Shown piece by piece: positions 1-58,849 of a stretch of DNA of 64,000 bases. The notes beneath the pieces are model-generated. The model was not told where the DNA came from. It searched no databases and saw nothing but the letters and a program-made list of their open reading frames with translations. Location: NCBI GenBank assembly GCA_964500725.1, contig CAZCNP010000002.1, positions 133,347-197,346 on the forward strand, read 5' to 3'. Source of the DNA: an uncultured Gammaproteobacteria bacterium (lineage in GTDB: Bacteria > Patescibacteriota > Microgenomatia > Daviesbacterales > UBA10151). The position numbers and the translations under genes are program-made. Position 1 is the first letter of the stretch, and every line of letters begins with the position of its first letter.

Positions 1-288
1 GAGATGGAACATGGAGATCTAATAGCTTTGGTAACACATTCACCTCACGCATTGCGGACATTGCATATGATACAAAGAATAAATGAATTACAAAAAGATA
101 ACGCAAGCCATAATTTATTAGATTTCCCTATTAGTGATGAGAGTATATTAAAAATCTCGCCAGTTCGTACACCGGCAACTGGTTTGACAGAATACGCAAC
201 TTTAGAAATTTGTGGACTTCTTCACTATGCTTACTATGACCAAACCCGTCCGGCATCCAAAATTCCTTTTCCGAACTATGAGTATTAA
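1..288 (+). CDS. DUF218 (YdcF/ElyC/SanA)-like protein, C-terminal part. The frame is open to the window edge, so the gene is probably truncated at its 5' end.
   Basis: The C-terminal ~90 aa align by eye with ORF 14557-15309 (LVTHSPHALRTLHM vs LVAHAPHLVRALHI; EYATLEICGLLHYAY vs NYAMLEISGLLYYTF). The S/T-x-x-H-x-x-R motif is typical of DUF218. Confidence 0.45.
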   Translation, partial: EMEHGDLIALVTHSPHALRTLHMIQRINELQKDNASHNLLDFPISDESILKISPVRTPATGLTEYATLEICGLLHYAYYDQTRPASKIPFPNYEY

Positions 289-1132
289 TAAAAAAATACT
301 GATATTGGGAGGAAGCGGTTTGGTTGGTTCGCACTTTGTAAAATACATTCAGGATTTAAAAGCTAATGTTAGAGTGCCTACTAGTGTACAGCTGAATGTT
401 TTAGTTTTTGATGTTTTGAGGCAATATATTAATTACGAGAAACCGGATATAGTCATTAATTTTGTTGCTTATACCAACCGTGATAAGGCAGAAAAAGAGA
501 AGGGCGATAGAGAGGGTTTAGTTTGGAAAACAAATGTGGAGTTAGTTGATAAGTTAGTAGGGATTTGCCAAGAGTTTAATATTTACTTAATACATATTTC
601 AACAGACGCTGTTTTTTCCGGTTCAGAAAGAATGAAAGGGCCTTATTCTGAAAATCAAGCTCTAGATGTTTCAGAAAATTTAAACTGGTATGGAGAGACA
701 AAGAGGCAATCTGAAATCGTAATCAGAGAAGCTAATATAAAATGTGCCATAATAAGGATTAATTATCCCTTTGGTAATGCAAAATCCGAAAAGGACTTTG
801 CTCGAAAAATATACCATTATATTCTTTGTGGTTATCCGCTTTTTGTCGATCAGCAATTTAATCCGACTTATTTACCAGATTTAGATATAGCTATACAAAG
901 GATTATTCAAACCGAAGCCCAAGGAATTTTTCATGTTGCCTCAAAAGAGATAGTAACCCCCTTTGACTTCGGGCAATTAATTAGGAAATTTACAGGACTA
1001 AAGATACAAATAAATAAGGGATCTAGGGTAATATTTGGGGGATTAAACATTGCTCAAACAGAACAAAAATTAGAATTGGAGTTTCATACAATCAAAAATG
1101 CATTGAAGGAATTCTGTAGGGAGATTTCTTAG
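278..1132 (+). CDS. RmlD-like NAD(P)-dependent sugar nucleotide reductase (dTDP-4-dehydrorhamnose reductase family).
   Basis: N-terminal Rossmann motif KILILGGSGLVGSHF right after the ATG at 278. Downstream STDAVFSG...GPYSE...P.NWYGETKRQSE resembles RmlD substrate-binding and YxxxK regions. The ORF-track start at 212 lies inside the upstream gene. Confidence 0.55.
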   Translation: MSINKKILILGGSGLVGSHFVKYIQDLKANVRVPTSVQLNVLVFDVLRQYINYEKPDIVINFVAYTNRDKAEKEKGDREGLVWKTNVELVDKLVGICQEFNIYLIHISTDAVFSGSERMKGPYSENQALDVSENLNWYGETKRQSEIVIREANIKCAIIRINYPFGNAKSEKDFARKIYHYILCGYPLFVDQQFNPTYLPDLDIAIQRIIQTEAQGIFHVASKEIVTPFDFGQLIRKFTGLKIQINKGSRVIFGGLNIAQTEQKLELEFHTIKNALKEFCREIS

Positions 1133-1134
1133 AG

Positions 1135-2433
1135 TTATATAATCTTTAGATAAGGAATTGTAATAATAAATCGTCCACCTTTTTTGCGATATTTTGTTTG
1201 TTTGCGAATAATTTCATTAGCAAAATTCCACGCAAGTATTAATGCATAATGAGGAACATCTTTTTGTAAACGAATTTCCGGATAAATAGGAATATGGGTT
1301 CCAGGTGTGAAGCGATCATGTTTGTAGAATATCGAATCAACTATATAATCAAGCAAACTAGTGCCTATTTTACAATAATTAAGTAGCACATTACCTTTAG
1401 CAGATGCCCCATAACCTATGATTATTTTTCCTTGTAGTTTTAGTTTTTTCAGGTATGATTTTAAATCTCTTCTAATAACTCCGACTCGTCTGCCAAAGTC
1501 CTCGTATGTTTCTTTTTTATTTAGTTTTCTTAATAATTCTTCCTTGATAACTCTATATACTGAACGATTAGCTTGGTATTTTGATCCTTTTTTTGCAATA
1601 TATATCCTAACTGATCCACCGTGAATAGCTAGTTTCTTAATATTGTAAATATACATGTTATGCCTATTAAATAATTCCGTTAATGGTCTGATGCTAAAAT
1701 AGGAAAGATGTTCATGATAAATCGTATCAAACTCATTTTTTTCAAGCAGATCTACCAGATAGGGGAACTCCATAATAAATACTCCTTGTTTGTCTAGTAG
1801 TAGATTGATGCCAGATATGAGATTATGGAGATTGTTGACATGTGCTACTACATTTGTGGCAGTAATGATTTTAGCTTTACCGAATTCTCTACTTACTCTT
1901 TTGGCTAAGTTATCTGTAAAAAAGTCATCTATGGTATTTATTCCTTTTAGCTTGGCTACCTGCGCAAGATTTCTGGCTGGATCCACGCCTAAAACTTTAA
2001 TTTCACTTTGTTTAAAAAAACCTAAAAGGGTACCATCGTTACTTCCAATATCTATAACAAGGTCATTACTATTCAGATTAAATTCATTAATGGTATTATC
2101 AGCTAGCTTTTTGAAGTGAGTAAGCATAGTAGTTGAGGTAGAAGGGATATATAAATAATTTTTAAACATAAGTTCTGCAGGAACTACATGGGTAAGTTGG
2201 ACTAACCAACATTTTTCACATACACATATTCCCAACGGGTAAAAGGATTCTGATTTTTTTAATTCTTTTTTACTTAAGAATCCATTAGGAATAGGCATGC
2301 TTCCTAGAGATAAGAAATCAAAGATTAGATTACTATCACAGATTCTACATGATTTGATCTTGTATTTTTCATATGTTGGTTGATTGGGGCGAGACATAGT
2401 CGTTATTGTTACAGAACGGTTAACAAATATCAA
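1135..2433 (-). CDS. SAM-dependent methyltransferase with N-terminal Zn-ribbon (sugar C-methyltransferase-like, TylCIII/Methyltransf_13-14 architecture). Paralog 1 of 3.
   Basis: N-terminal CRICDSNL...LSLGSMP Zn-ribbon-like motif. Central DIGSNDGTLL class-I methyltransferase motif. Overall collinear with ORFs 15311-16591 and 32415-33689. Probable start MSRPNQ at 2397. Confidence 0.6.
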   Translation of the reverse strand: MIFVNRSVTITTMSRPNQPTYEKYKIKSCRICDSNLIFDFLSLGSMPIPNGFLSKKELKKSESFYPLGICVCEKCWLVQLTHVVPAELMFKNYLYIPSTSTTMLTHFKKLADNTINEFNLNSNDLVIDIGSNDGTLLGFFKQSEIKVLGVDPARNLAQVAKLKGINTIDDFFTDNLAKRVSREFGKAKIITATNVVAHVNNLHNLISGINLLLDKQGVFIMEFPYLVDLLEKNEFDTIYHEHLSYFSIRPLTELFNRHNMYIYNIKKLAIHGGSVRIYIAKKGSKYQANRSVYRVIKEELLRKLNKKETYEDFGRRVGVIRRDLKSYLKKLKLQGKIIIGYGASAKGNVLLNYCKIGTSLLDYIVDSIFYKHDRFTPGTHIPIYPEIRLQKDVPHYALILAWNFANEIIRKQTKYRKKGGRFIITIPYLKII

Positions 2434-2454: not shown

Positions 2455-3279
2455 TTAGATAAATAGAAGATTCTCGTAATAGATATTTGGTATATACGAA
2501 TTTCTGATTCGTACTAGAAGTTTACCCTTTAACTTATATGATTTGTAATTATTTTTCATTAATAGTCTATAAAGATCGATTAATTCATACCCAGCTATTT
2601 TCGATAAGGGTCGATTAAGCTCGATCAATAATGGGGGATGAAGTTCTCTAATTGTTTTTTGTGCTCCTGTTAAAACATTAAGCTCTCCTCCTTCTGTGTC
2701 AATTTTTATTAAACCAATGTCTTTGATCTTGTTAACTTTGACAAAGTGATCTAAAGTAACAGCCTTAATTATTTGGGTTTTATTTGAAAGAGGAATAACG
2801 GTGGAATGTAAACCTTTGTTATTCTTGTGGATATACAGGGGTAAATTATTACTATTTTGGTTAGATAAAGCTTTTCTAATAGCTTTCGCATTGGCTATAG
2901 AGTTAATATTTAAATTGCGAACTAATCTTTTATAATTAGTTCTTTCAGGTTCGAATGCATAAATATATTTTGCTATTTTTGACAAAGCAAGGGTATAAAT
3001 CCCTATATTTGCACCAATATCAAAGAAAGTTCTACCTTTAACAAATTCAGTTATCTTCATTAACCATTTACCTTCGTATAAGCCATCCATAAATATCCAA
3101 TAATCAATGAAATCCCCCAGATTTAAATCAATTTTGGCATTAGATATTTTCACTAATGAACGAATTTTGATTTGCCTATTTTTTAAAAGCAAAAAAAGAG
3201 TGAACTTTATAAAGTGAGGAGGATTTAGAAGTTTAAATACAAATGCAGTTACTAATAATAGTCTTTCAAAGTAATTCAT
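2455..3279 (-). CDS. FkbM-family methyltransferase.
   Basis: FDIGANIGIYTLALSKIAKYIYAFEPERTNYKRL matches the FkbM (Methyltransf_21) core. Confidence 0.6.
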   Translation of the reverse strand: MNYFERLLLVTAFVFKLLNPPHFIKFTLFLLLKNRQIKIRSLVKISNAKIDLNLGDFIDYWIFMDGLYEGKWLMKITEFVKGRTFFDIGANIGIYTLALSKIAKYIYAFEPERTNYKRLVRNLNINSIANAKAIRKALSNQNSNNLPLYIHKNNKGLHSTVIPLSNKTQIIKAVTLDHFVKVNKIKDIGLIKIDTEGGELNVLTGAQKTIRELHPPLLIELNRPLSKIAGYELIDLYRLLMKNNYKSYKLKGKLLVRIRNSYIPNIYYENLLFI

Positions 3280-4409: not shown

Positions 4410-5321
4410 ATGAAAAAAAAATTAGTATCAGTGGTAATAGTAACCCGGGACAGAAAGAAAAAGGGTTTAAAAGCCATAGTCTCGATCTACGAACAAAGGT
4501 ATAGTCCTTTAGAGGTGATTTTAGTTGATAATGCTTCCTTAGATAACACAGCTGAAATAATAAAAAGAAAATATCCAAAAACAATTATAGTAACTAGTCA
4601 AACAAATATAGGTGGGGCAGGAGGAAGAAACCTAGGATTATCCTATGCAAAAGGTAAATTTGTATTCTTCATGGACGATGATGCTTTTGCAGATATACAT
4701 GCGCTTTCAGAATTGGTAAAAGTAATACGAGAGGATCCTAAAGTAGGTATAGTGCAGCCTAAAATTTACTATGCAGATAAAAAAAATATTATACAGGGAG
4801 TAGGTCATGGAATTAATTTATTGACTGGTAGGGTTTTTGGGATAGGAGTTGGAGAAAGAGATCATGGGCAATACGAAGAGATAATGGATATACCTATGGT
4901 GGGTTGTACATGGTTGGTGAAAAAAAGTGTATTTCAAAAGATAGGTACATATGATGAAGATTTTTTTATCCCTTATGAAGATTCAGATTTTTCCATAAGA
5001 GCTAAAAAGGCAGGATTCAGAATATGTTTTGTGCCCAGGGCTCATGTTTGGCATAGCAGCCATAAGGATTCTGATATCTCTCCAAAACTTAGATGGCTTG
5101 GAATTACTACTGCAGAGAGAGCATATAGAGTTAGCCGCAATAAGATTATTTTTATGAAGAAGCATGCTCCTCTTCTTAATTTATTAATTTTTCTTTTTCT
5201 CTTTAATCCTATCTATGCGGTCTTGCATTCTGCTATCATAATCCTATCTAAAAGATTTGATATATTGGTCAATTATTGGTGGGGTTTAATAGCAGGTCTT
5301 TGGTATGTATTAATAAGATGA
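4410..5321 (+). CDS. Glycosyltransferase family 2.
   Basis: VSVVIVTRDR...VILVDNASLDNT...FFMDDDAF (DxD). C-terminal TM helix. Confidence 0.7.
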   Translation: MKKKLVSVVIVTRDRKKKGLKAIVSIYEQRYSPLEVILVDNASLDNTAEIIKRKYPKTIIVTSQTNIGGAGGRNLGLSYAKGKFVFFMDDDAFADIHALSELVKVIREDPKVGIVQPKIYYADKKNIIQGVGHGINLLTGRVFGIGVGERDHGQYEEIMDIPMVGCTWLVKKSVFQKIGTYDEDFFIPYEDSDFSIRAKKAGFRICFVPRAHVWHSSHKDSDISPKLRWLGITTAERAYRVSRNKIIFMKKHAPLLNLLIFLFLFNPIYAVLHSAIIILSKRFDILVNYWWGLIAGLWYVLIR

Positions 5322-13385: not shown

Positions 13386-13386
<1 letters not shown>

Positions 13387-14393
13387 TATAGTTTTGATTG
13401 ATTTCTTATTCTCTCTATTAATTCTTGTACCCTGACACCAGCACTGAAGTTTGGAGTAAATTCTCTTCTATATATAATAGATTTAATAAATCGATCAGTT
13501 AATTTGCTTATAATTCTCACTCGTTCATCTTCGCCTCTTACGCCTTTTTCTTTTGAAATTGTAAGTTGTTTTGCACTTCCATCTTCATAAATTTTAATTT
13601 TAAAATTCTCCACAACACTATTTGTATTCTCTAAGACAGCTGTACCCCTATCGGAAACAAATATTAATTGATGTCTACTTAACCCAGAATTATTACAGCA
13701 AAGGTGGGCATACCCGGTGATATTTTTTTTAAACTGCAACAAGAGATCAATACCTGTTTCTCCGCCATTAATACTTTCTTTGGAGTACGAAACAAGACTT
13801 TTGAGGTTTAAGATTTCTCCTGCAAAATATTCTAAATAATAAAGAGAGTGGGAGAAGTAATAAGATAATGCTCCGCCGCCTTCGACGGCGTCAGTTTTCC
13901 AGGATGAAACTTTATTTTTAATGTCATAGCTTTGAAAATCCCAATTTAAATTAATTTGTTTTAACTTGCCTAAGGTTTTTTTATTTATTATTTCTTTAGC
14001 CTTTTGCCATTCCTCAATCTCTGGAAAAATGAAATCTACAGCATTTATAATTTTCTTTCTTTTAGCTAGGTCTAAAAGTTCTCTGGCCTCTTGATAAGTT
14101 GTTGCCAAAGGTTTTTCGGCAAAAACATGTAAGCCTCTTTTTATAGCTGTTTTAGCTATGTTGTATTGGGCGCTGGGAATAACTGCTATAGCAACAGCAT
14201 CGAGATCTTCCTTATTGAGCATCTCACGCCAGTCTGTATAAGTGTTTGTTAAGTCAATTCTTTTGCAATAGTTAATAAAGCGGGGGGTATGTTTGCCGCA
14301 AATTGCAACAACTTTGCATCCATGAGTGGAATTAAAAGCAGGCAGCAAACCATATAATCCAAAACCGGAACCAATTATGCCAACTTTTACCAT
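13386..14393 (-). CDS. Gfo/Idh/MocA-family NAD(P)-dependent oxidoreductase.
   Basis: MVKVGIIGSGFG... Rossmann N-terminus and AEKPLATTYQEAREL, the family signature EKP motif. Confidence 0.7.
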
Positions 14394-15310: not shown

Positions 15311-16591
15311 TTAGACCTCAGAGTTTTTAACTATTTTAAAATCAGGCAGAGGGATGATGAAGTCTGATTTTAGGCCCCTTGCTTTGAGTTGTTCCATAAT
15401 CGGTTTGGCATAGTGCCAGGCCAATACCACGACATATTCAGGCTGCTCATCAATTAAACGCCGGTTATTTACTATTGGTATATGCTTGCCCGGTAAAAAC
15501 ATATTTAGTTTTAATGAGGTTGGCTGTTCAGCTAAATACGGTAATAATTCTTTATCAACGCCGTAATAATTTAATAAGGTGGAGCTCCGGGCAGGACAAG
15601 AATTACCGACAACTGATTTACCCTGTTTCTTGGTTTTAAAAAGAAAGTCCATAAATTCAAAACGGGCTTTTTTAACCCTGTCGGCAAATTTAGTAAATGT
15701 TTCGAGCTTATCTAACCCAAAATCTTTTTCAAGCTTCAGTAACTCCTTAACTGCTGAACTTACTTTTTTACCTTTTCCTTTGGTAGCATAAACCCGGATA
15801 TTGCCTCCATACCGATCACCTCTTTCGACATCCGTAACTGTAAAGTCATACTGGTTAAATAACTCTATGTAGGAGCGTAACGAATAAGTTCTGAGGTGTT
15901 CATGGTAGATGGTATCAAATTGCCCTCCCCGTAAAACATCTAAAAGATAATGTGTTTCATTTATAAACACACCATCGTCTTTTAGCAGATGGTAAGCTCC
16001 CATAATAAATTCACCTAAAGTTTGCATATGGGCAAAAGTGTTTGTAGATATAACTAGCGAAGCTTTTCCATACTTCTTTTTTATTTTTTCTGATGTTTCT
16101 ATATCAAAAAATGATTGAACGGTTTTGATTCCACTTTTATTGGCAATTTTGGCAATATTTGTGGGTTCAACACCAAGTGTTTTAGCTCCTGCCTTTTTAA
16201 AGCCCTTCAATAAAGTACCGTCATTGGAACCAACATCAATAACAAGGCCTTTTGGTGTTAGGTTAAGCTTTTTTACTAAAGAAAGAGCCATCTTCTCTTG
16301 ATATTCTGCCAGTTCTTTTGTAATACCACTTCTGTAAGGATAATCAGGGTGATAAACTTCTTTTCCAGAAACGCAATAGTCCAGTTGAACACCAGTACAA
16401 TTTTGACACCAGATCATTCTTAGCGGATAAGTCTTTTCCGGTTCATTTAAGCTGTCTTTTGTGAGTAAAGTATCGCAAAGAGGTTGGTGTCCCAAATCCA
16501 AAATAGTATGAAGGTTACCAGAGTTACAAATTTGGCATTTGGATAAAGGTCCTGTTTTGATAGAGTGATGTGTAGGATATTTTAGTTTCAT
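15311..16591 (-). CDS. Zn-ribbon SAM-dependent (C-)methyltransferase-like. Paralog 2 of 3.
   Basis: CQICNSGNLHTILDLGHQPLCD Zn-ribbon. VIDVGSNDGTLLKGF methyltransferase motif. C-terminal region is collinear with the other paralogs. Confidence 0.6.
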   Translation of the reverse strand: MKLKYPTHHSIKTGPLSKCQICNSGNLHTILDLGHQPLCDTLLTKDSLNEPEKTYPLRMIWCQNCTGVQLDYCVSGKEVYHPDYPYRSGITKELAEYQEKMALSLVKKLNLTPKGLVIDVGSNDGTLLKGFKKAGAKTLGVEPTNIAKIANKSGIKTVQSFFDIETSEKIKKKYGKASLVISTNTFAHMQTLGEFIMGAYHLLKDDGVFINETHYLLDVLRGGQFDTIYHEHLRTYSLRSYIELFNQYDFTVTDVERGDRYGGNIRVYATKGKGKKVSSAVKELLKLEKDFGLDKLETFTKFADRVKKARFEFMDFLFKTKKQGKSVVGNSCPARSSTLLNYYGVDKELLPYLAEQPTSLKLNMFLPGKHIPIVNNRRLIDEQPEYVVVLAWHYAKPIMEQLKARGLKSDFIIPLPDFKIVKNSEV

Positions 16592-17967
16592 GATAGTCCG
16601 ATTCCTTTATATATTATTCCAGCTTTTTGGAAGAGGCGTTTATCATATATTCTTCTGCCGTCAATGACAATAGGGTTTTTCATTAGTCTTTTGAAAAATA
16701 CGGGAGTTAATTTGATATATTCTTTCCAAGAAGTGATGATAATTGTTGCATCAGCATTTTGAATTGCTTCCTCTACAGTGCTGGTTAAAATTATTGAAAG
16801 ATCAGCTAATTTTGTAGGTACATTGTTTTTTTGGTATACCATTGGGTCATGTACAATAACTTTGGCATTTTCTGCAAGTAATTTTTCTATTACCGTGAAT
16901 GCGGGTGATTCGCGGGTATCATCCGTGTTAGGTTTAAAAGATAATCCCAATATGGCTATTCTTTTTCCAGTCAAATTTTTTCCTAAGGCCTTTTTCAGCA
17001 GTGAAACTAACCGGTATGGTTGGGTTTGATTGATACCGATAACACTTTTTATAAGTTTTGGTTCACTTCCTAATTCGTCGGCAAAACTGGCTAAAGCTTG
17101 TACATCTTTAGGAAAACAGCTTCCTCCAAAACCACATCCGGAAAAAATGTAACTTAATATTCCCGGTTTAATGCGAACATTCCCACTTATGGGACTGAGC
17201 CTTTTATCCAGATGTACCCCTTTCCATACATCTATGACATCAATATTGCCAGCATGTTCTGCGATTCTGGCAATTTCATTTGAGTAACTGATTAGAGTTG
17301 CCAGTAAAGCATTAGCAGCATATTTTGTCATTTCTGCGGTCCAAAGATTGGTAAAGATTTTTTCAGCCGATATTGACTCATAAATTTTGGCAAATTTTTT
17401 ACCGCTTTTGATATCAATTTGTCCGATGATAATCCTATCAGGAGTTAGCGCATCCTCCAAAGCACTGCCTTCCCTTAAGAATTCCGGATTCATGCAAATT
17501 CCAAAACTACCAACACTTTTTTTAGAATATTTTTCCAATATTGGTTTAATAATTTTTTCAGTTACACCGGGTAAAATCGTAGATTTGACTGCTACAACCT
17601 GGTAGTTTTTGATTTTTGCCATGGCTTCCCCGATTTGTTTTGCAGCTTGTTTAATATAAGAGAGGTCTATTGTCTTGTTAGTAGTTGGTGTCCCAACCGC
17701 GATGATGGTAATTTCTGACTCTAAAACTGCTTTCTCAAGGTCAGTTGTAGCAAGAAGTCTTTTTTGTTTTAGTACTCTTTTTAGGTATTTATCAATTTCT
17801 GGTTCGTAAAAAGGTGATTTGCCAGCGTTGACTTTGGAAATTTTATTTTGGTCAGTATCAACACAAATTATTTGGTGACCTAATATAGCCAATGATATTC
17901 CGGTAACTAATCCTACATAACCTGTTCCAATAATAGCAATTTTCATAATGAGTTTTGCTGATACCAC
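16588..17967 (-). CDS. UDP-glucose/GDP-mannose dehydrogenase-family nucleotide-sugar 6-dehydrogenase.
   Basis: KIAIIGTGYVGLVTG Rossmann motif and GFGGSCFPKD catalytic Cys motif. Probable start MKIAIIG at 17946. Confidence 0.8.
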   Translation of the reverse strand: MVSAKLIMKIAIIGTGYVGLVTGISLAILGHQIICVDTDQNKISKVNAGKSPFYEPEIDKYLKRVLKQKRLLATTDLEKAVLESEITIIAVGTPTTNKTIDLSYIKQAAKQIGEAMAKIKNYQVVAVKSTILPGVTEKIIKPILEKYSKKSVGSFGICMNPEFLREGSALEDALTPDRIIIGQIDIKSGKKFAKIYESISAEKIFTNLWTAEMTKYAANALLATLISYSNEIARIAEHAGNIDVIDVWKGVHLDKRLSPISGNVRIKPGILSYIFSGCGFGGSCFPKDVQALASFADELGSEPKLIKSVIGINQTQPYRLVSLLKKALGKNLTGKRIAILGLSFKPNTDDTRESPAFTVIEKLLAENAKVIVHDPMVYQKNNVPTKLADLSIILTSTVEEAIQNADATIIITSWKEYIKLTPVFFKRLMKNPIVIDGRRIYDKRLFQKAGIIYKGIGLS

Positions 17968-19052
17968 AATAAAGTATTAGTTAAGCCTTGATCTAGTGAT
18001 ATTTCCGGATTATAGCCCAAATCTTTTTTGGCTTTTCCAATTCGCGGACAACGGCGGTTAGGACTATCGGTTAAATAGTTTTTGTCATGACTTTTTTCCA
18101 TAACTATCTTCCCCCGATAGCCTAAATGTTTAACTGCCAAATCTGCCATAAGTTTAGCTAAATCATACATAGAAATTTCCGGCTTCTCAACTCCAATGTT
18201 ATAACTTTCGGCTGCTTTACCTTTCAGTAATACTTTTAAGTATCCAACTACTGCATCTGTAACATAACAAAATGTCCGCGTGGGAGAGCCGGTAGAGAGT
18301 AAAACAATATCCTTATTTGGTAAAATATTCTTAGCAAAATCAGGAATAACTCTGCCGTCAGTTATTTTCAAACCCGGTCCATAATTATTAAAGGGCCTGA
18401 CTATTTTAATAGGTAAATTGTGTGCTCTTGAGAAATTGACACAAAGAGTTTCACCAAATCTTTTTGATTCATCATAGCAAGCCCTCGGACCAGTACAGGA
18501 GACATTTCCGCGGTAAGTTTCCGGAGTAGGAATATTTTCCGGAGTAGGATCGCCATATATTTCGCTTGAAGAAAAAAACAACAATCCTTTGACCGGTTTT
18601 TTTATCCCTTTTCTTTTAACCAAATAATTTAAGATGTTATAAAGGCCCTGAACATTGGCATTAATGGTTTCTATTGGGTATTGGCGGTAAAAGATTGGTG
18701 AGGCAATAGAGGCTGCATGAATTATGTAATCAAACCTGACGGAGAGATCAGGTTGGTATCTTGTAATATCTGCTTTAACTGTCTTCAGGTCATTTCTTTT
18801 ACTTAGCCACTCCGGTACTCCATTTATAAAAGTATCTAAAGCATATAGGGTAATTTTCTTTTTTGGATTTATATCATTCCACAGCAGAAGTGATTTAATA
18901 AAATAATAACCTAAAAACCCGTTAGCTCCGGTAAAAAGAATAGTTTGATTTTTCAGAAGTTCAAACTCTTTTTTGGCTTTTGTATAGATGTACTTCAGAT
19001 CATTTTCTTCAACAGGAGTATTATTTATTGACATTATTTCCAGACTTTCCAT
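17943..19052 (-). CDS. UDP-glucuronate decarboxylase-like extended SDR (UXS/ArnA C-terminal domain family).
   Basis: SSSEIYGDP...GPRACYDESKRFGETLC...DGRVIPDF closely matches the UXS signature (GPRACYDEGKR..ET, DGRVVSNF). Confidence 0.7.
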   Translation of the reverse strand: MESLEIMSINNTPVEENDLKYIYTKAKKEFELLKNQTILFTGANGFLGYYFIKSLLLWNDINPKKKITLYALDTFINGVPEWLSKRNDLKTVKADITRYQPDLSVRFDYIIHAASIASPIFYRQYPIETINANVQGLYNILNYLVKRKGIKKPVKGLLFFSSSEIYGDPTPENIPTPETYRGNVSCTGPRACYDESKRFGETLCVNFSRAHNLPIKIVRPFNNYGPGLKITDGRVIPDFAKNILPNKDIVLLSTGSPTRTFCYVTDAVVGYLKVLLKGKAAESYNIGVEKPEISMYDLAKLMADLAVKHLGYRGKIVMEKSHDKNYLTDSPNRRCPRIGKAKKDLGYNPEISLDQGLTNTLLWYQQNSL

Positions 19053-19807
19053 TTGGGATCTTCATTCCAAAGTTTATTTAGATTGTTGACATCAGGATAA
19101 GTATCCATTGAATGCCAGAAACCATTGTGAGCATATATAGTCAGTTGTCCTTCTTTAATTAATCTTTTTAAAGCATCGTGTTCATATTCCCCTTTACCGA
19201 TATAGTCAAAAATTTTCTTTTTAAATATCATAAAACCACCATTTATCCAGTCATTCAAAACGGGTTTTTCTAAAAACTGGTAAGCAACTCCGTTTTTATT
19301 CATCGTTAAGATGCCATATCTGCTTCTGGGGTGTACCCCTGTAATCGTTCCAATCAAATTATGATCTCTGTGGAATTCAACCAACTGCTTGATATTGATA
19401 TCCGAAACACCGTCTCCATACGTAACCATAAAACTTTCATCATTTTCCGGTATAAAATCTCTTATTCTTAAAATCCGTTCTCCCGGTAAGGTTTCTTGGC
19501 CGGTGTCTACAAAAGTGATTTTAAAGTCATCCTTGTTATTTTGGTTACGATGAATTTTTGCGTGTCCGGTTTTTGTATACAGAGTAAAATCATCAGTGAA
19601 ATATTTTTGATTAAGAAAATAATCTTTAATATAATCACCTTTATATCCCAAAGCAATGATAAATTCATTAAACCCGTAGTGGGAATAAATCTTCATGATA
19701 TGCCAAAGAATTGGTTGACTGCCAATAAATACCATTGGTTTTGGTTTAAACTCGGTTTCTTCTTTTAATCTGTATCCAAGCCCGCCGCAAAGAATAACTA
19801 CTTTCAT
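19034..19807 (-). CDS. rfbF: Glucose-1-phosphate cytidylyltransferase (RfbF/DdhA-like).
   Basis: MKVVILCGGLGYRLKEETEFKPKPMVFIGSQPILWHIMKIYSHYGFNEFIIALGYKGDYIKDYF is near-canonical for RfbF. Confidence 0.8.
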   Translation of the reverse strand: MKVVILCGGLGYRLKEETEFKPKPMVFIGSQPILWHIMKIYSHYGFNEFIIALGYKGDYIKDYFLNQKYFTDDFTLYTKTGHAKIHRNQNNKDDFKITFVDTGQETLPGERILRIRDFIPENDESFMVTYGDGVSDINIKQLVEFHRDHNLIGTITGVHPRSRYGILTMNKNGVAYQFLEKPVLNDWINGGFMIFKKKIFDYIGKGEYEHDALKRLIKEGQLTIYAHNGFWHSMDTYPDVNNLNKLWNEDPKWKVWK

Positions 19808-21699: not shown

Positions 21700-21715
21700 A
21701 CAAACGCTTGCTTAC

Positions 21716-22885: not shown

Positions 22886-22888
22886 AGA

Positions 22889-23968
22889 TTAATTAATATG
22901 TTTTATCCAGCGCAGGTCGTCTGAAATATAACCGTTGCTAATTAGCCATTCCAATTTTTGCAACCGGTAAAAATTAATATTTTCAAATTGCTCTTTTGTT
23001 AGGTTAATTTCTTTAAACTTTTTCAACATGGCTTTAACGCTATTTTTTACAGTCCAATTGCACTCAAATCCTGGAAATACCTTTTTGATTTTATCAAATG
23101 AAATCTTATAGTTTCGGGAATCCACGCCATCTTGAATTTTTCGGTCCTTGATTAATTCTTTATTAATTTGAGTATTTGTTTGGTTAATAAAATTAATCTC
23201 ACAACCCTGAACTTGTTTTTTAACGATTTTGGTAAGGTCTAATATTTTATAATTTTCTGAAGTACTACCGACATTAATAATTACTTTCTGACTTATCGGG
23301 GGAGTATATTCAACCGCATATTTGATGGCTTTGCAAATATCGTTTACACAAACATTGGGTCTCCAAGCCTGCCCATTGGAATTTAAAATGATTTTTCCGG
23401 TGGTATAAGCCATGGCGGTAAACATATTGATAACTAAATCAAATCTCATTCTTGGAGATAAACCAAAAGCGGTGGCAAACCTAAAAATAATCGGAGTAAA
23501 ATTTTTATCGGTAATTTTTGCTAAGTCCTGTTCTATTTGTACTTTATTTAATGAATAAGGAGTTTGAGGGAAAACCGGTGAAGTCTCGTCAGAATATCCA
23601 TCAACCCCTTTACCGTATACTGAACAACTAGAGGAGAAAATAAATTTTATCCCTAACTTCTTACATAGTTTTGCTGTTTGTATAGTATGTTTTCTGACAG
23701 GATCATAGACTTTTACAAGATCCAAATTTTTAAAAGGATCATTCGAGATACCGGCTAAATAAATAACAGCATCAAACCCTTTGAGGTCTTTTGTGGTAAT
23801 ATCCCGAACATCTTTATATATTGTTTTGCAATCGTTTAGTGGGTAAAGCAGGCAATCTTTAATAAAACCTGTATCTATTCCCGAGACATTGTATCCATAT
23901 TGTACTAAATACGGTACCAAAACGCTGCCTATGTAACTTTGAGATCCTGTTACCAAAACTTTTTTCAT
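22889..23968 (-). CDS. NAD-dependent epimerase/dehydratase (extended SDR). Paralogous to 26636-27670.
   Basis: VLVTGSQSYIGSVL Rossmann motif. YSLNK (YxxxK). AYTTGKI...WRPNVCVNDIC shared with the paralog. Confidence 0.6.
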   Translation of the reverse strand: MKKVLVTGSQSYIGSVLVPYLVQYGYNVSGIDTGFIKDCLLYPLNDCKTIYKDVRDITTKDLKGFDAVIYLAGISNDPFKNLDLVKVYDPVRKHTIQTAKLCKKLGIKFIFSSSCSVYGKGVDGYSDETSPVFPQTPYSLNKVQIEQDLAKITDKNFTPIIFRFATAFGLSPRMRFDLVINMFTAMAYTTGKIILNSNGQAWRPNVCVNDICKAIKYAVEYTPPISQKVIINVGSTSENYKILDLTKIVKKQVQGCEINFINQTNTQINKELIKDRKIQDGVDSRNYKISFDKIKKVFPGFECNWTVKNSVKAMLKKFKEINLTKEQFENINFYRLQKLEWLISNGYISDDLRWIKHIN

Positions 23969-23971
23969 TGG

Positions 23972-24859
23972 CTAAATTTTATCATATTCTATGGTTTTCC
24001 TGAGGCCCATTTCGATGCTAAGCTTTGGGTGCCAGTTTATGGCTTGTTTTATTTTTGAGATATCGGCATAACTGGCCGATAAAGCATCGGTCGGCATTTG
24101 TTTTGACGTTTGATAGCCTCCACTTTTTTCGTAGATGTCATAAATTGTATTGATAATAGTTTGTACGCTTGTTAATCGCCCGGAACCAATATTAAAAATA
24201 CCGCTTTGGTTATACTCTAATACTAGTTTTGAAATAGCATCTGCCACGTCTTCTATGTAAATAAAGTCATTTTTGGCATCAGGGTTTCTGATTTCGGGTT
24301 CTTTTCCTTCTTTAAGACAATTTATAAGATATGAGATTAAGGAGGTGTTTTTTTGACCGGGTCCATAAACATAGAATAACCTTGTCCATAAAAAAAGCAT
24401 ATTATTTTCTATGGCAAATTCTTTGCCTATCCAATTAAGGGAATTTTTGGCGGCAGTAAAGCAATTGAAGGGTTCAACAGGCAAATCTTCCGATAATTTA
24501 CCCGGTATTTTGCCATATTCCCAGACACTACCTGTTACCAGCACTTTTCTACAATTTATTTTTAGCAATAATTGAATTAACTCTAATCCGTACTTTAAAT
24601 TCCGGATACTGTTTTTGGCACCGTAATCAGGTATTCCTTCCCATGCTAGATGGATTGTTGCATCCGGCTTAAATTTTTCTAAATCACCAGCCCAGTCATG
24701 AATACCTTCCAGGTTGCCTTCTAAAAATCGGATACCATCAGAAGATTTTCCGCCGTGAGGGTTTCTGGTAAGAAGCAATAAATCATTTTTCCCATTATCA
24801 AGCTTTTGGGTAACATATTTTCCAATAAAACCAGTTCCACCAGTGATGAAAATCCTCAT
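23972..24859 (-). CDS. NAD(P)-dependent sugar nucleotide epimerase/reductase (extended SDR, ~295 aa).
   Basis: MRIFITGGTGFIGKYV. Its size and its position after the cupin epimerase suggest a 4-reductase. Confidence 0.6.
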   Translation of the reverse strand: MRIFITGGTGFIGKYVTQKLDNGKNDLLLLTRNPHGGKSSDGIRFLEGNLEGIHDWAGDLEKFKPDATIHLAWEGIPDYGAKNSIRNLKYGLELIQLLLKINCRKVLVTGSVWEYGKIPGKLSEDLPVEPFNCFTAAKNSLNWIGKEFAIENNMLFLWTRLFYVYGPGQKNTSLISYLINCLKEGKEPEIRNPDAKNDFIYIEDVADAISKLVLEYNQSGIFNIGSGRLTSVQTIINTIYDIYEKSGGYQTSKQMPTDALSASYADISKIKQAINWHPKLSIEMGLRKTIEYDKI

Positions 24860-25419
24860 ACTTTTAATCCGCCGTACTTTTTAACAAACTCCTTGAAGCT
24901 TTGAGCTTTGGTATCCCTTTCAGAGATATCGGCAGGGGTCTTTATGGGCCAGTTAATGGCTAGATTGGGGTCATTCCACCTGATATTGTCATAACTCTCA
25001 GGTATAAAATACTCATCCATTTTATATAGTATTTGGCAATTAGGAGTTAGAGTACACATACACGGGGCACAGCCTTTGGGAATATAAATCTGATTCTTTT
25101 TTTCTGCAGATACCACAATCTGAATCCACTTACCAAAAGTTTTTTGTTTTGGTCTTAGATCGATAATGGTAAAAAGTATTTCTCCGGAGATTACCCGGAT
25201 TAATTTTGTTTCAGCGTATGGAGGATGTTGGAAGTGGATACCCCTGACTGTCCACTTCTCTTTGCTAAGAGAATGACTTTCCTGAATCCAATCCGTAACC
25301 AAACCGTGTTTTGCAAATATTTCTGCATCATAAGTTCTCATAAAAAATCCACGGGAATCAATATTTGGTTCAAGCTGAATTTCAAAAACACCCTTAATTT
25401 GTTTTTCTTCAATAACCAT
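24856..25419 (-). CDS. RmlC-like cupin, nucleotide-sugar 3,5-epimerase family.
   Basis: SRGFFMRTYD and VRGIHFQHPPYAETKLIRVISGEILFTIIDLRP are RmlC signatures. Confidence 0.7.
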   Translation of the reverse strand: MVIEEKQIKGVFEIQLEPNIDSRGFFMRTYDAEIFAKHGLVTDWIQESHSLSKEKWTVRGIHFQHPPYAETKLIRVISGEILFTIIDLRPKQKTFGKWIQIVVSAEKKNQIYIPKGCAPCMCTLTPNCQILYKMDEYFIPESYDNIRWNDPNLAINWPIKTPADISERDTKAQSFKEFVKKYGGLKV

Positions 25420-25437
25420 AAGTACTATTTTACAACT

Positions 25438-26631: not shown

Positions 26632-26635
26632 GATT

Positions 26636-27670
26636 TTAAGTCCAGTAGAGGTTTTTATCTATTTTTCTCTGTTCAAGCAAGTATTTAACTTGTGGCAGGC
26701 GGTTACATTTCCTGCCTCTGAAATCTTCCTCGGTAAAATCGATTGATTTAAAAAATTCTACCAATTCTTTACCCCCTTTATCCAGATCCCACGCAGGTTT
26801 ATAGTAGTTTTTTAAGACTGATAAAATTTTTTTAAAAGAGACTTTGTAAGTTCTGGAGTCATTGCCATGTTCTCCGGTAAATGTTAAAGAACTTCCTGAT
26901 ACAGCTCTTTGGGCAGCTTCAGCCAGATCCCTGACGGTATAGTTTCCGTTTTTGATACCAACGTTGAAAGATTGGTTGCCAACTAATCTTGCAGGTGCTT
27001 CTAGTCCGGCAATATATGCCGAGCAAACATCCCTAACATGTACTACCGGACGCCAAGGAGTACCATCACTTTTAATTTCAATCTTGCCTGTTGTATAGGC
27101 ACAGGCCACTAAGTTATTAAAAACAATGTCACATCTTAAGCTTGGACTGGCACCAAAAATCGTGGAAGGCCTGAAGCAAATAACAGTAAAATCATCTGAT
27201 GAAAGCTTTTTAAGTCCGCATTCTGCCTGCCATTTTGTTTTAGCATACTCTGTAATGGGATTTTTGGTGCTATTATCTTCATCTAACTCACTGGCGGTAT
27301 CAGATATTCCATACATGCTCTGAGAAGAAGAATAAATAAACCTTTTTACTCCTGCTTGTTTGGCCAACTTTGCCAATTTGATGGTAGCTTTATAATTTAT
27401 ATTTTTGGTAAGTAGGGGATTGAGTTGTCCTACCGGATCGTTTGAAAGAGCAGCCAGATGAATAATAAAATCTATGCCTTTGAGATCTTCTTTAGAGACT
27501 TGTCTAATATCTTTAGTGATTTGTTTAATTTTTGCTGAGGTTTTTGGTAAAGGACATAATTTTTGATAATAATTAGTATCAAAACCAACTACTTCATATC
27601 CTCGTTGTATTAAAATATCAGTCAATACTGATCCGATATACCCTAAATTTCCGGTGACAAGAATTTTCAT
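26636..27670 (-). CDS. NAD-dependent epimerase/dehydratase (extended SDR). Candidate GDP-heptose dehydratase or epimerase.
   Basis: MKILVTGNLGYIGSVL. YAKTK (YxxxK). Located inside the heptose gene block. Confidence 0.6.
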   Translation of the reverse strand: MKILVTGNLGYIGSVLTDILIQRGYEVVGFDTNYYQKLCPLPKTSAKIKQITKDIRQVSKEDLKGIDFIIHLAALSNDPVGQLNPLLTKNINYKATIKLAKLAKQAGVKRFIYSSSQSMYGISDTASELDEDNSTKNPITEYAKTKWQAECGLKKLSSDDFTVICFRPSTIFGASPSLRCDIVFNNLVACAYTTGKIEIKSDGTPWRPVVHVRDVCSAYIAGLEAPARLVGNQSFNVGIKNGNYTVRDLAEAAQRAVSGSSLTFTGEHGNDSRTYKVSFKKILSVLKNYYKPAWDLDKGGKELVEFFKSIDFTEEDFRGRKCNRLPQVKYLLEQRKIDKNLYWT

Positions 27671-27675
27671 ATAAA

Positions 27676-31695: not shown

Positions 31696-32418
31696 ATGAG
31701 TGAGAAACCAATAATTGAAATGACACCAAGAGCTGCCCCGATAGAATTTTCTGAAAGCGAACAATGGTGGCAGGGTGCAGAAAAAGCCTATAATTTGCTT
31801 TGTAATGACAGGCCAGCTAAACCCTGTGACATTCTTTACTTTTTCGGCCGTTCTTATTTTGATGCACCCAAGAAAAGTTTTTATGGTTTAGCAGTCAATT
31901 TATATCAGCAAGGGATGGTTAGAAAAATTATAGTCCCCGGCACAGAGGGAGAACGACTGGGTGAAACCATACCCGGAATGGCTCACCCTGGTAAAACGGC
32001 AATGAAAAACCGTTTAGTAAGAATGGGTGTTGCAGAAGAAGATGTAGTATTCAGCAAGCCAGGATATCACACTAAACAAGAAGGTGATGCTTTTTTGGAT
32101 TATTCCATGGAAAATTCTCTGCATAGAGCAATAGCTTTTACTAATCCACATCAGATAGTGCGGGCAATGCTCGGTCTTGTCAGAACAATTAATGATAAGA
32201 GTTTATCCCTTGAAACTTATACTGCTGTACCTGATCCAGAAAAATTTGATTGGGGGAGGATGGTGAAAGGTTCCCAAGGGCAAAAGCTTGAACCGGTATT
32301 CAAACATTTTTATGAAGAACTCTCCAGAATTTCCCGTTATCAGCAAAAAGGTGATCTGGCTGGTTTTGAGGAATTGTTTGAATATATGAATATTCGAAAC
32401 AGCAGAAGACCTACTTAG
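31696..32418 (+). CDS. DUF218 (YdcF/ElyC/SanA)-like protein. Paralog 3.
   Basis: IAFTNPHQIVRAMLGL core motif. VPGTEGE... upstream is similar to YdcF-like proteins. Confidence 0.45.
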   Translation: MSEKPIIEMTPRAAPIEFSESEQWWQGAEKAYNLLCNDRPAKPCDILYFFGRSYFDAPKKSFYGLAVNLYQQGMVRKIIVPGTEGERLGETIPGMAHPGKTAMKNRLVRMGVAEEDVVFSKPGYHTKQEGDAFLDYSMENSLHRAIAFTNPHQIVRAMLGLVRTINDKSLSLETYTAVPDPEKFDWGRMVKGSQGQKLEPVFKHFYEELSRISRYQQKGDLAGFEELFEYMNIRNSRRPT

Positions 32419-33689
32419 ACTATTTTGGGTTCCGGGATTGGGATAATAAACTTTCCGCCGGCTTCTTTAAACCATGGTTCCTTTTTTTCCATAATATGTT
32501 TGGCATAATTCCAGGCAGTAATTAAAATATAATCCGGAGTGCGTTTTTTTAAAGTGTCTTCCGGCAAGATAGGAATATGGGTTCCGGGGGTAAATTTCCC
32601 GATTTTAGAAGGAGCGCTGTCAGTAATGTAATCAATTACATCAGCTCCGATATTACAGTATTGCAAAAGCGTGGTTGCTTTTGCCGATGCTCCATAAGCA
32701 GTAACTTTTTTACCCTTCTTCTTTAGATCCAAAAGCATTTTAGTAAGTTTCTTTTTCACAAGAGGCGGTCTTGCAGCAAACTTTTTATAAGCAGCTAGTT
32801 TATTCAGTCCTAACATTTTTTCATTTTCCAAAAAGTTTCCTACTGATTTATCGATGGGAAAAGGAGATGAGGAGTGTGCCGCGAAAACAATAATTCCTCC
32901 CCCATGTGTATCTGTATGAATTACCTCTATCATCTTCATAGAGTGCATCTTTAAAAGATATAAAAGGGGGGAGACAGCATGGAAACAAATATGTTCATGA
33001 TAAGTATTATCAAATTCGTTATGAGCCAAAAGATCCGCTAAATATTGAACCTCAAAAACAAAGATGCCGTTATTATCCAATAATTCCTTTACTCCTTGAA
33101 AAATATCATGTAAAGCATCCGTATGAGCTAAAGTGTTGTTTGATGTAATTATCCCGGCTTTGCCGTATTTTTTTATCAGTTCCGGGACCTTTTTGCGGCT
33201 AAAAAAATCAGCAATAGTTTCAATACCGTTGCTATTGGCAATTTTAGCTATATTTTCTGCCGGATCTATCCCTAAAACCCTAGCCCCTAATTTTTTAAAA
33301 GGTTTTAGTAATACTCCGTCATTGCTTCCGATATCAATAGTTAATTGTTTTGATTGTTGGGGGAAACGTTTAAAAACTTCTCCAGCATATTCTTCAAAAT
33401 GCCTGACCAGCATAGGGGATGTTGAAGAAAAATAGTCATAATGGCGGTAAATATAAGCTCTGTCTACAATATGTAAGAGTTGGGCCAGGTGGCAGTTATG
33501 ACAGAAATAAACTTTAAGAGGGGCTTTAAATTCCGTTTGTTTTAACTGAGGTTTAGTTAGATATGAATTTGCAGGTGCAGCATTGCCCAGAGATAAATAA
33601 TTTGTTAATTCTTTGCTGCCGCAGATAAGACATTCATTACTTCTTCTGTAGAGTTTTTTGTCTTTAAGCGAATTTGTATTTTTTGACAT
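32415..33689 (-). CDS. Zn-ribbon SAM-dependent (C-)methyltransferase-like. Paralog 3 of 3.
   Basis: CLICGSKELTNYLSLGNAAPAN Zn-ribbon. TIDIGSNDGVLL motif. Collinear with 1135-2433 and 15311-16591. Confidence 0.6.
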   Translation of the reverse strand: MSKNTNSLKDKKLYRRSNECLICGSKELTNYLSLGNAAPANSYLTKPQLKQTEFKAPLKVYFCHNCHLAQLLHIVDRAYIYRHYDYFSSTSPMLVRHFEEYAGEVFKRFPQQSKQLTIDIGSNDGVLLKPFKKLGARVLGIDPAENIAKIANSNGIETIADFFSRKKVPELIKKYGKAGIITSNNTLAHTDALHDIFQGVKELLDNNGIFVFEVQYLADLLAHNEFDNTYHEHICFHAVSPLLYLLKMHSMKMIEVIHTDTHGGGIIVFAAHSSSPFPIDKSVGNFLENEKMLGLNKLAAYKKFAARPPLVKKKLTKMLLDLKKKGKKVTAYGASAKATTLLQYCNIGADVIDYITDSAPSKIGKFTPGTHIPILPEDTLKKRTPDYILITAWNYAKHIMEKKEPWFKEAGGKFIIPIPEPKIV

Positions 33690-34593
33690 ACTTTATATAA
33701 TCGGCAAGTCCCTTCTCTAAATCCATTTTTGGAAACCATCCGATAATTTTTTTGGCTTTCTTGTTGTCCATTGTACCCCGTTTTGGTCTGTCCTGTAAAT
33801 CTTTCACCTCGACTTCGAATTTAAAGTATTTCTTTAAAACATCAACAAATTGAAACAGACTAATAGCGTTACCGCCGCTTATATGAAATACTTCTTTGGC
33901 CGGGGCTTTTAAAGCAACATCGGCAATCCCTCTGACGAGATCTTTTACATAAATAAAATCCATGACAATATTTTTATTGATCCAGAATTTCTCGCCTCTT
34001 AAAATTTTACTTAAAATAATATTGCTTGCCCTTGAGTTCATGTCGCCAAAGCCATATATATTTGTGGTTCTGACCACATTCCAGTTGCTAAGTTCTGCTT
34101 TGGTTAAAAATTCCCCGCCTGCTTTTGATAATCCATAAGGAGTTTTAGGTACAAGTTGATCTTCCTCGTTGATCACATCTTCACAATCTCCATAAGCGGA
34201 TATGGAGGACATGAAAACAAATTTTTTAACGGGAAGACTTTTTATTGCTTCGACAATTTTGTAAGTTAAAGCAAGATCCTCTGTTATTTGTTTTGAAGAG
34301 ATGTTGATATCATTTGCGCGTTCTAAGGGAATTCCGGCCAGATGAATTAAGACATCAGGTTTTTCTTTTTTTAATATTTCTTCTCCCTTTTCTTCGAATT
34401 TTTTTCGATAGATTTTAGCCCCCTTTAGCAAAGTTTCTTTTTTAAACTTATTTATGTTTTTGGTGATTTTTGAGTTCCACTCAGTATAAAAAATAAAGGG
34501 ATCAATAATTACAACGTCATGTTTTCTTGAGATTAATTCACGGGTAAGCCACGACCCTACAAATCCACCGCCTCCTACTATGAGAATTTTCAT
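33664..34593 (-). CDS. NAD-dependent epimerase/dehydratase (extended SDR).
   Basis: MKILIVGGGGFVGSWL Rossmann motif. YGLSK (YxxxK). Confidence 0.6.
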   Translation of the reverse strand: MKILIVGGGGFVGSWLTRELISRKHDVVIIDPFIFYTEWNSKITKNINKFKKETLLKGAKIYRKKFEEKGEEILKKEKPDVLIHLAGIPLERANDINISSKQITEDLALTYKIVEAIKSLPVKKFVFMSSISAYGDCEDVINEEDQLVPKTPYGLSKAGGEFLTKAELSNWNVVRTTNIYGFGDMNSRASNIILSKILRGEKFWINKNIVMDFIYVKDLVRGIADVALKAPAKEVFHISGGNAISLFQFVDVLKKYFKFEVEVKDLQDRPKRGTMDNKKAKKIIGWFPKMDLEKGLADYIKYVKKYKFA

Positions 34594-39756: not shown

Positions 39757-39763
39757 ATAATTC

Positions 39764-54352: not shown

Positions 54353-54356
54353 AGTT

Positions 54357-58824: not shown

Positions 58825-58849
58825 TCTCCTTTGTTAAAATGCTTTTGTC

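Follow-up and report, generated by a model that had tools for sequence, protein, structure and literature searches.

Three divergent lineages of predicted ketosugar C-methyltransferases lie side by side in a glycan-biosynthesis locus of a Daviesbacterales genome

A 64-kb stretch of contig CAZCNP010000002.1 (assembly GCA_964500725.1; hereafter the window), from a bacterium that GTDB places in the Daviesbacterales within the Candidate Phyla Radiation (CPR), encodes three proteins related to sugar C-methyltransferases. We named them MT1 (1135-2397/2433), MT2 (15311-16591) and MT3 (32415-33689). All three are members of a known and very large enzyme family, and as enzymes they are not new in kind. 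Judged from sequence comparison, they represent three anciently separated lineages that have been kept side by side. We consider it likely that all three copies are active ketosugar C-methyltransferases making distinct products. Because the three separate ancient lineages have different conserved partners, the copies most likely make different branched sugars, and the occurrence of several branched-chain sugars in the glycan is plausible.

An earlier sequence-only reading of this DNA had placed three minus-strand open reading frames (ORFs) here and described each as an N-terminal Zn-ribbon, a central S-adenosylmethionine (SAM) binding motif and a conserved C-terminal domain. All three ORFs are present where it had placed them, and the three-part architecture was borne out by Pfam, which gave an identical set of Methyltransf_13, Methyltransf_23 and Methyltransf_14 in each copy, all far over the gathering scores. 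The putative zinc-binding domain Methyltransf_13 (PF08421) was matched at E values of 5e-18 to 3e-22 (65-79 bits, cut-off 31.3). The class-I SAM domain was matched by Methyltransf_23 at 2e-12 to 3e-15, and by Methyltransf_11/12 as well. The C-terminal domain had been named as the point at which the assignment might fail; it proved to be the C-methyltransferase domain Methyltransf_14 (PF08484) in all three, at 5e-43 to 7e-55 (147-186 bits, cut-off 23.5), and the match spans profile positions 2-160 of 160. The motifs C-x-I-C-x-S and D-x-G-S-N-D-G (IDIGSNDG, IDVGSNDG and IDIGSNDG) occur in every copy as claimed, while the L-G-x-x-P motif holds for MT1 and MT2 but not for MT3, which has L-G-N-A-A-P instead. 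The acidic ribose-binding residue of the SAM site is conserved as D151 in MT1, E142 in MT2 and D142 in MT3. NCBIfam contained no specific model for MT1-3 and gave only sub-threshold UbiG-like matches to the SAM core, and an Rfam scan of the window returned no match. As for the start of MT1, the ATG at 2397 aligns with the paralogs and homologs and is the homolog-supported choice. Public gene calls contain both the TTG and the ATG variant, and no clear Shine-Dalgarno sequence was seen upstream of either.

A sequence search of the PDB matched each of MT1-3 over its full length to MtmC (4rv9), KijD1 (5t64) and TcaB9 (3ndi), with E values of 1e-61 to 1e-90. MtmC was the best match for every copy (2e-90 for MT1 over residues 26-428, 1e-70 for MT2, 4e-85 for MT3) and aligned end to end at 32-36% identity; KijD1 and TcaB9 gave 1e-61 to 1e-80 at 30-34% identity. 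These three are the only solved members with this architecture; the remaining PDB matches were weak and confined to the SAM core. Residue conservation was then assessed by aligning MT1-3 with 352 homologs and the MtmC and KijD1 sequences. The four zinc-ligand cysteines align with those of KijD1 and MtmC, and are invariant in MT1-3 and near-invariant across the 352 homologs. The same holds for the equivalents of TcaB9 Y76, H181, Y222, E224 and H225, a catalytic list taken from the titles of PDB entries that name the mutated residues (Table 1). The position between the Tyr and the Glu is Asp in KijD1 and His in MT1-3 and MtmC.

The fold was checked by a model for MT2, the most divergent copy, and by sequence for MT1 and MT3. 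The AlphaFold2 model of MT2 had a pLDDT (predicted local distance difference test) of 90.9 and a pTM (predicted template modelling score) of 0.89. Foldseek superposed it on 4rv9, 3ndi and 5t64 with TM scores of 0.88-0.94 and root-mean-square deviations of 1.8-2.3 A over 405-414 columns (0.90/0.92 for MtmC 4rv9), and the next-best PDB structures covered the Rossmann SAM core only, at a TM score of about 0.3. Domains, full-length matches, zinc and catalytic residues and predicted fold thus support the earlier assignment of MT1-3 to the nucleoside diphosphate (NDP)-hexose C-methyltransferases of the TylCIII/EryBIII type. No characterised O-methyltransferase with this architecture was found, and a literature search gave nothing useful on PF08484/PF08421 or on CDP-glucuronate.

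The pairwise identity of MT1, MT2 and MT3 is 36-40%, with 101 invariant columns. Their identity to the actinomycete enzymes MtmC and KijD1 is 31-36%, so that the three copies are about as distant from these as from one another, and a neighbour-joining tree put them in three deep clades. Relatives of MT2 comprise at least 120 clusters (90% identity) at 77-86% identity, some of them named Candidatus Daviesbacteria. Those of MT1 lie at 56-79%, with names that include Roizmanbacteria and Microgenomates, and those of MT3 at 51-85%, with names that include Daviesbacteria, Levybacteria and other CPR groups. Because each copy has much closer orthologs in other Microgenomates, at 53-86% identity, the three are old lineages and not recent duplicates. 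A recent local duplication is ruled out by the 36-40% identity between the copies together with the far closer orthologs of each elsewhere. Hence "paralogs", the term used in the sequence-only reading, is correct, but a local expansion is not what it describes here, since each copy has its own close orthologs and falls into a deep clade. The enzyme family is a very large one, with 3,128 clusters at 50% identity and E <= 1e-30, and at least 551 relatives were counted among species-representative genomes across most bacterial phyla and several archaeal groups. A metagenome scan with MT3 yielded only 3 short loci. Two C-methyltransferase genes in one locus were also seen in other CPR genomes (loci L012, L016 and L096).

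TcaB9 and KijD1 act on dTDP-3-amino-2,3,6-trideoxy-4-keto sugars, and the TcaB9-type mechanism is a base-catalysed enolisation next to the 4-keto group, with the methyl group coming from SAM. If MT1-3 work as TcaB9 does, a proton would be taken from the carbon beside the 4-keto group by the Y-H-E-H His (H242, H232 and H233 in MT1, MT2 and MT3), with help from the neighbouring Glu. The resulting enolate would attack the methyl group of SAM, giving a C-methyl branched ketosugar. In the solved homologs, the C-terminal domain binds the nucleotide. An adjacent reductase-like enzyme would then reduce the C-methyl ketosugar, and glycosyltransferases of the locus would transfer the branched sugar to the surface glycan. 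The putative partners differ between the copies: the RmlD-like reductase and the FkbM methyltransferase for MT1, a conserved oxidoreductase of the GFO/IDH/MocA family (hereafter GFO) as the candidate follow-up redox enzyme for MT2, and a coupled 309-aa short-chain dehydrogenase/reductase (SDR) as the candidate 4-ketoreductase or 4-oxidase for MT3. The genes that had been noted beside the copies, namely the RmlD-like reductase beside MT1, the UDP-sugar dehydrogenase beside MT2 and the SDR beside MT3, are all in place (Table 1). The last two, labelled "UDP-sugar dehydrogenase" and "SDR epimerase" there, are better read as taking part in steps that generate or reduce 4-keto sugars.

The gene order of the MT2 operon is cytidylyltransferase-like, UXS-like SDR, 6-dehydrogenase and MT2. 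The genes of this operon, and likewise the SDR/MT3 pair, overlap by 4-26 nt, and the start of MT2 is overlapped by 4 nt by the dehydrogenase gene. Because the operon combines a cytidylyltransferase-like enzyme, a 6-dehydrogenase and a glucuronate-decarboxylase-like SDR, it hints at an NDP-4-keto-pentose as the likeliest substrate of MT2. The set of a methyltransferase with the UXS-like, dehydrogenase and cytidylyltransferase-like genes recurs in locus L016 (Daviesbacteria), at 70-81% identity to the MT2 operon proteins, in L022 (the cyanobacterium Leptolyngbya), where the methyltransferase is distant and the UXS-like and dehydrogenase proteins are 56% and 44% identical to those of the window, and in L070 (a metagenome-assembled genome (MAG) of the gammaproteobacterium Fontimonas), with 52% and 41%, respectively. 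Taken over these three loci, the UXS-like homologs next to C-methyltransferase genes have 52-73% identity. As the set recurs across phyla, these data support a functional link of MT2 with the UXS-like/dehydrogenase set. The Leptolyngbya cassette continues (L022 13957-16814) with a DUF4910-DUF2172-HTH_47 (M28-peptidase-like) protein, an NTP-transferase and a PIG-L-family deacetylase.

In 7 loci (L005, L006, L013-L017) the MT2 ortholog is followed immediately by a GFO gene, and in L012 such a gene is found some 1.7 kb further downstream. A universal partnership of the UXS/dehydrogenase pair with the MT2 lineage is ruled out, as the pair is found only in a subset and GFO is the constant neighbour. 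Because the link is not universal, the pentose route is a hypothesis for the genome of the window and its close relatives, and not for the whole MT2 lineage. Between MT2 and the GFO gene of the window lies an ORF of about 250 aa (14557-15309, +), convergent on the 3' end of MT2, with a sub-threshold DUF218 hint (E 0.057).

MT3 is found in a conserved trio with the overlapping SDR gene and a convergent ORF of about 240 aa. The overlapping SDR-MT3 pair also occurs in L011 (71% identity) and L096, and the trio is kept both in L011, which is a complete Levybacteria genome, and in L096. The ORF equivalent is 36% identical in L011 and is a 237-aa ORF with no Pfam match in L096; the ORF of the window itself had no Pfam or NCBIfam match. 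Because the trios of L011 and L096 adjoin NTP-transferase and HAD-phosphatase genes, as in heptose activation, a heptose-derived ketosugar is a reasonable proposal for the MT3 substrate. The convergent ORFs beside MT3 (31696-32418) and MT2 (14557-15309) look alike by eye, and BLASTP found no similarity between them. MT1 orthologs elsewhere mostly adjoin other class-I methyltransferases and glycosyltransferases.

Several points weigh against three active enzymes with distinct ketosugar substrates. First, the 64-kb window holds no canonical 4,6-dehydratase of the RmlB, RfbG or GMD type. All its SDRs fall well short of the thresholds of the dTDP-, CDP- and GDP-sugar 4,6-dehydratase models (RmlB, CDP-glucose-dehydratase). 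A canonical CDP-glucose 4,6-dehydratase was ruled out by tblastn with a bona fide RfbG, the enzyme of locus L089 (E 3e-133 to 1rkx), which found only a 24%-identical match. The classical supplier of a 4-keto-6-deoxy substrate is hence either lacking or encoded on another part of the 278-kb contig. Secondly, other MT2 orthologs (77-79% identity, on other CPR contigs) have no UXS/dehydrogenase genes; they have GFO immediately downstream and either an NTP-transferase and SDR or an RfbH-like DegT enzyme. Thirdly, UXS-type enzymes usually re-reduce the 4-keto-pentose themselves. Moreover, the partners of MT1 differ between genomes. Finally, the substrate, its nucleotide and the position of the added methyl group are all predictions.

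Three alternative potential generators of 4-keto sugars are present in the window, namely the UXS-like protein and a related pair of SDRs (26636-27670 and 22889-23968). For the 26636-27670 protein, the top PDB match is 6vo6, which we take to be Cj1427 of Campylobacter jejuni. Cj1427 is the C. jejuni GDP-heptose C4-dehydrogenase and forms a 4-keto-heptose (PMC10680097). It is possible, though on balance doubtful, that the enzymes use such non-classical substrates. MT2 would then serve an undescribed route from NDP-glucose (possibly CDP-glucose) through NDP-glucuronate and NDP-4-keto-pentose to a C-methyl-branched pentose, and the sugar branched by MT3 would be a 4-keto-heptose from the C4-dehydrogenase-like SDRs. 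If this is true, the family acts on ketosugars that bypass the 4,6-dehydratase, and CPR bacteria carry branched sugars unseen in any glycan.

In one alternative, the copies would methylate a position other than C-3. The methyl group could go to C-5, as with NovU in noviose synthesis, or to a carbon adjoining a 3-keto group that a GFO-type dehydrogenase had introduced. In its favour, the weak NCBIfam matches of the MT2-lineage GFO partner are mostly to sugar 3-dehydrogenases, with inositol and xylose dehydrogenases besides (a PDB search with this protein gave generic oxidoreductases only). Furthermore, C-3 and C-5 both flank the keto group of a 4-keto-pentose, and sequence cannot assign the regiochemistry. 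However, C-3 is the position methylated by each of the three solved and characterised relatives, whose active-site residues are all conserved in MT1-3, and we regard methylation elsewhere as unlikely.

It is quite improbable that one or more of the copies are mainly NADPH-dependent 4-ketoreductases, or bifunctional, so that fewer than three branched sugars are made. The idea comes from MtmC, which heads the PDB matches of every copy and is reported to alternate between NADPH-dependent 4-ketoreduction and SAM-dependent 3-C-methylation (PMC10269268). Yet none of the three has lost SAM motif I or any residue of the catalytic set, and a dedicated reductase-like gene (RmlD-like, GFO or the 309-aa SDR) already lies beside each copy. 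The three copies might also be redundant isoenzymes that serve a single branched sugar, for instance within glycan cassettes that alternate or vary. With a Wzx flippase as well as a Wzm/Wzt ABC exporter, the window should serve several glycans; this, and the recurrence of two-copy loci in the CPR, would fit such redundancy. The 36-40% identity, the three deep clades, the separate long-term conservation and the different fixed neighbours make it very improbable. A role as common small-molecule class-I methyltransferases with no connection to nucleotide sugars, to which only the weak UbiG-like NCBIfam matches to the SAM core point, can be practically dismissed, as Methyltransf_13/14 are far over their cut-offs, the whole-chain fold matches sugar C-methyltransferases only and all neighbours are nucleotide-sugar genes. 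Active ketosugar C-methyltransferases with distinct products therefore remain our preferred reading of MT1, MT2 and MT3.

Table 1. The three C-methyltransferase genes and associated features of the 64-kb window (positions are those of the window)
Feature	Coordinates	Strand	Description
MT1, C-methyltransferase paralog 1	1135..2433	-	432 aa from TTG at 2433, 420 aa from ATG at 2397; residues 29-90 Methyltransf_13, 110-260 Methyltransf_23, 270-427 Methyltransf_14; Zn ligands C29, C32, C72, C75; catalytic set Y93, H198, Y239, E241, H242
MT2, C-methyltransferase paralog 2	15311..16591	-	426 aa; end gene of four-gene operon; Zn ligands C19, C22, C62, C65; catalytic set Y84, H188, Y229, E231, H232
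MT3, C-methyltransferase paralog 3	32415..33689	-	424 aa; SDR gene overlaps upstream end; Zn ligands C20, C23, C63, C66; catalytic set Y84, H189, Y230, E232, H233
RmlD-like NDP-4-ketosugar reductase	212..1132	+	Pfam RmlD_sub_bind E 5e-40; TIGR01214 rmlD 132.8 bits, under cut-off 224; convergent on MT1
FkbM-family methyltransferase	2455..3279	-	Pfam Methyltransf_21 E 7e-21; same strand, directly upstream of MT1
GFO/IDH/MocA oxidoreductase, conserved MT2-lineage partner	13386..14393	-	Pfam GFO_IDH_MocA and C-terminal domains
Nucleotide-sugar 6-dehydrogenase, MT2 operon	16588..17967	-	TIGR03026 422 bits, over cut-off; three UDPG_MGDP_dh Pfam domains; catalytic-Cys motif GGSCFPKD in translation
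UDP-glucuronate-decarboxylase (UXS/ArnA)-like SDR, MT2 operon	17943..19052	-	Best PDB match human UXS1 2b69/4gll, E 4e-43; ArnA and apiose/xylose synthase also matched; motifs SSSEIYGDP, ACYDESKR
Glucose-1-phosphate cytidylyltransferase-like (RfbF-like), first in MT2 operon	19034..19807	-	TIGR02623 289.8 bits (cut-off 300.25), full length
Second SDR of the 26636-27670 type	22889..23968	-	37% identical to the 26636-27670 protein; Pfam Epimerase
RmlC-like cupin 3,5-epimerase	24856..25419	-	TIGR01221 156.4 bits, over cut-off 155.75
SDR resembling GDP-heptose C4-dehydrogenase, in heptose operon	26636..27670	-	Best PDB match 6vo6, E 4e-37
Unknown-family 240-aa ORF	31696..32418	+	Convergent on and overlapping MT3 end; position conserved
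309-aa extended SDR, translationally coupled to MT3	33664..34593	-	Pfam Epimerase/RmlD_sub_bind; 26-nt overlap with MT3 start; motifs MSSISAYG, YGLSK; dehydratase D-E pair absent
Class-I methyltransferase	5276-5995		
Class-I methyltransferase	19909-20616		
Class-I methyltransferase	39764-40567		
Class-I methyltransferase	50557-51348		

The window is a near-uninterrupted glycan-biosynthesis region with many GT2 glycosyltransferases, exporters, a GDP-heptose operon, nonulosonic-acid genes and a phosphonate module. The count of further methyltransferases in the sequence-only reading, one of FkbM type and four of class I, was right (Table 1). A Wzx-type flippase (49093-50580, +) and a Wzm/Wzt-type ABC-2 exporter pair (53606-55139, -) are both encoded; the region thus has at least two export routes and probably makes more than one glycan. 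The GDP-heptose operon (20656-29291, -) contains an HddA-like kinase, a GmhA-like SIS isomerase and an HddC-GmhB fusion, together with the two 6vo6-like SDRs, the RmlC-like epimerase, another SDR, a DegT aminotransferase and a GT2 gene, and can be likened to the heptose-modification logic of Campylobacter capsules (PMC10680097). A 295-aa SDR at 23972-24859 (-) has Phe in place of the catalytic Tyr of Y-x-x-x-K (..NCFTAAKNS..), and a 57%-identical ortholog is present in Daviesbacteria L016.

The phosphonate module (55263-60148, +) starts with a phosphoenolpyruvate mutase carrying a fused N-terminal cytidylyltransferase domain (55263-56582), and continues with a thiamine-pyrophosphate enzyme like phosphonopyruvate decarboxylase (56534-57676), an Fe-alcohol dehydrogenase (57673-58824) and a TagF-like glycerophosphotransferase-family protein (58850-60148). 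It suggests a nucleotide-activated hydroxyethyl-type phosphonate decoration of the glycan. The nonulosonic-acid-type genes at 38240-44968 encode a PseF-like cytidylyltransferase, NeuB, a LegC-like aminotransferase with an N-terminal CBS domain and a GNAT acetyltransferase, and no PseB/LegB-type dehydratase was recognised near them. Three large proteins had no significant Pfam match, namely those at 6005-9448 (+, 1147 aa), 60154-62082 (+, 642 aa) and 51402-53591 (+, 729 aa), the last with a weak PMT-family hint (E 0.0013).

CPR bacteria combine a tiny genome with a life attached to other cells. To our knowledge, their surface chemistry is almost unknown, and it probably matters in host contact. 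Three separately conserved C-methyltransferase lineages and five other methyltransferases within 64 kb suggest that methyl-branched and methylated sugars are important and stable at the surface. What lends the locus some interest is that three ancient lineages persist in a reduced CPR genome, that the window has no 4,6-dehydratase and that the MT2 lineage is recurrently linked to a glucuronate-decarboxylase module. In addition, the MT2 operon could reveal a new substrate class, the 4-keto-pentoses, for a well-studied enzyme family.

Among known systems, one for comparison is CBU_0691 of Coxiella burnetii, a TylCIII-like enzyme proposed in silico for virenose, a sugar of the lipopolysaccharide, and placed after a GDP-mannose or dTDP-glucose 4,6-dehydratase (PMC3539893). 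By description, it resembles MT1-3 as a TylCIII-family enzyme of a surface-polysaccharide pathway and not of an antibiotic pathway, and it differs in its upstream 4,6-dehydratase step, for which no counterpart was found in the window. MtmC of Streptomyces argillaceus (4rv9) shares the Zn(Cys4), SAM and C-terminal domains and the Y-H-E-H motif with MT1-3. It is, however, an actinomycete antibiotic-pathway enzyme with a dTDP-2,6-dideoxy sugar substrate, which methylates TDP-4-keto-2,6-dideoxyglucose at C-3 (PMC10269268), whereas the window is a CPR cell-surface glycan locus from which 2,3-dehydratase and 4,6-dehydratase genes are absent. TcaB9 (Micromonospora chalcea) and KijD1 (Actinomadura kijaniata), C-3'-methyltransferases of nitrosugar pathways, are full-length homologs as well, and every residue of TcaB9 probed by mutation is conserved in MT1-3.

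A broader comparison was made with 80 loci (L013-L092) around C-methyltransferase homologs in species-representative genomes of other species. The commonest neighbour was a homolog of the cytidylyltransferase-like protein at 19034 (68 of the 80 loci), followed by the RmlC-like epimerase at 24856 (53 of 80), an SDR of the 26636/22889 type (37 of 80; 35-45% identity to the 26636-27670 protein) and a canonical CDP-glucose 4,6-dehydratase (about 18 of 80); the last two are alternatives within the cassette. The surveyed cassettes include archaeal MAGs of Bathyarchaeota, Promethearchaeota and Methanovirga. There appears to be a widespread CDP-type branched-sugar cassette that is seemingly uncharacterised. 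The window carries counterparts of each part, namely 19034 for the cytidylyltransferase, 24856 for the RmlC-like epimerase and 26636 and 22889 for the SDR, but they are spread over 15-28 kb, and MT2 is instead joined to the dehydrogenase and the decarboxylase.

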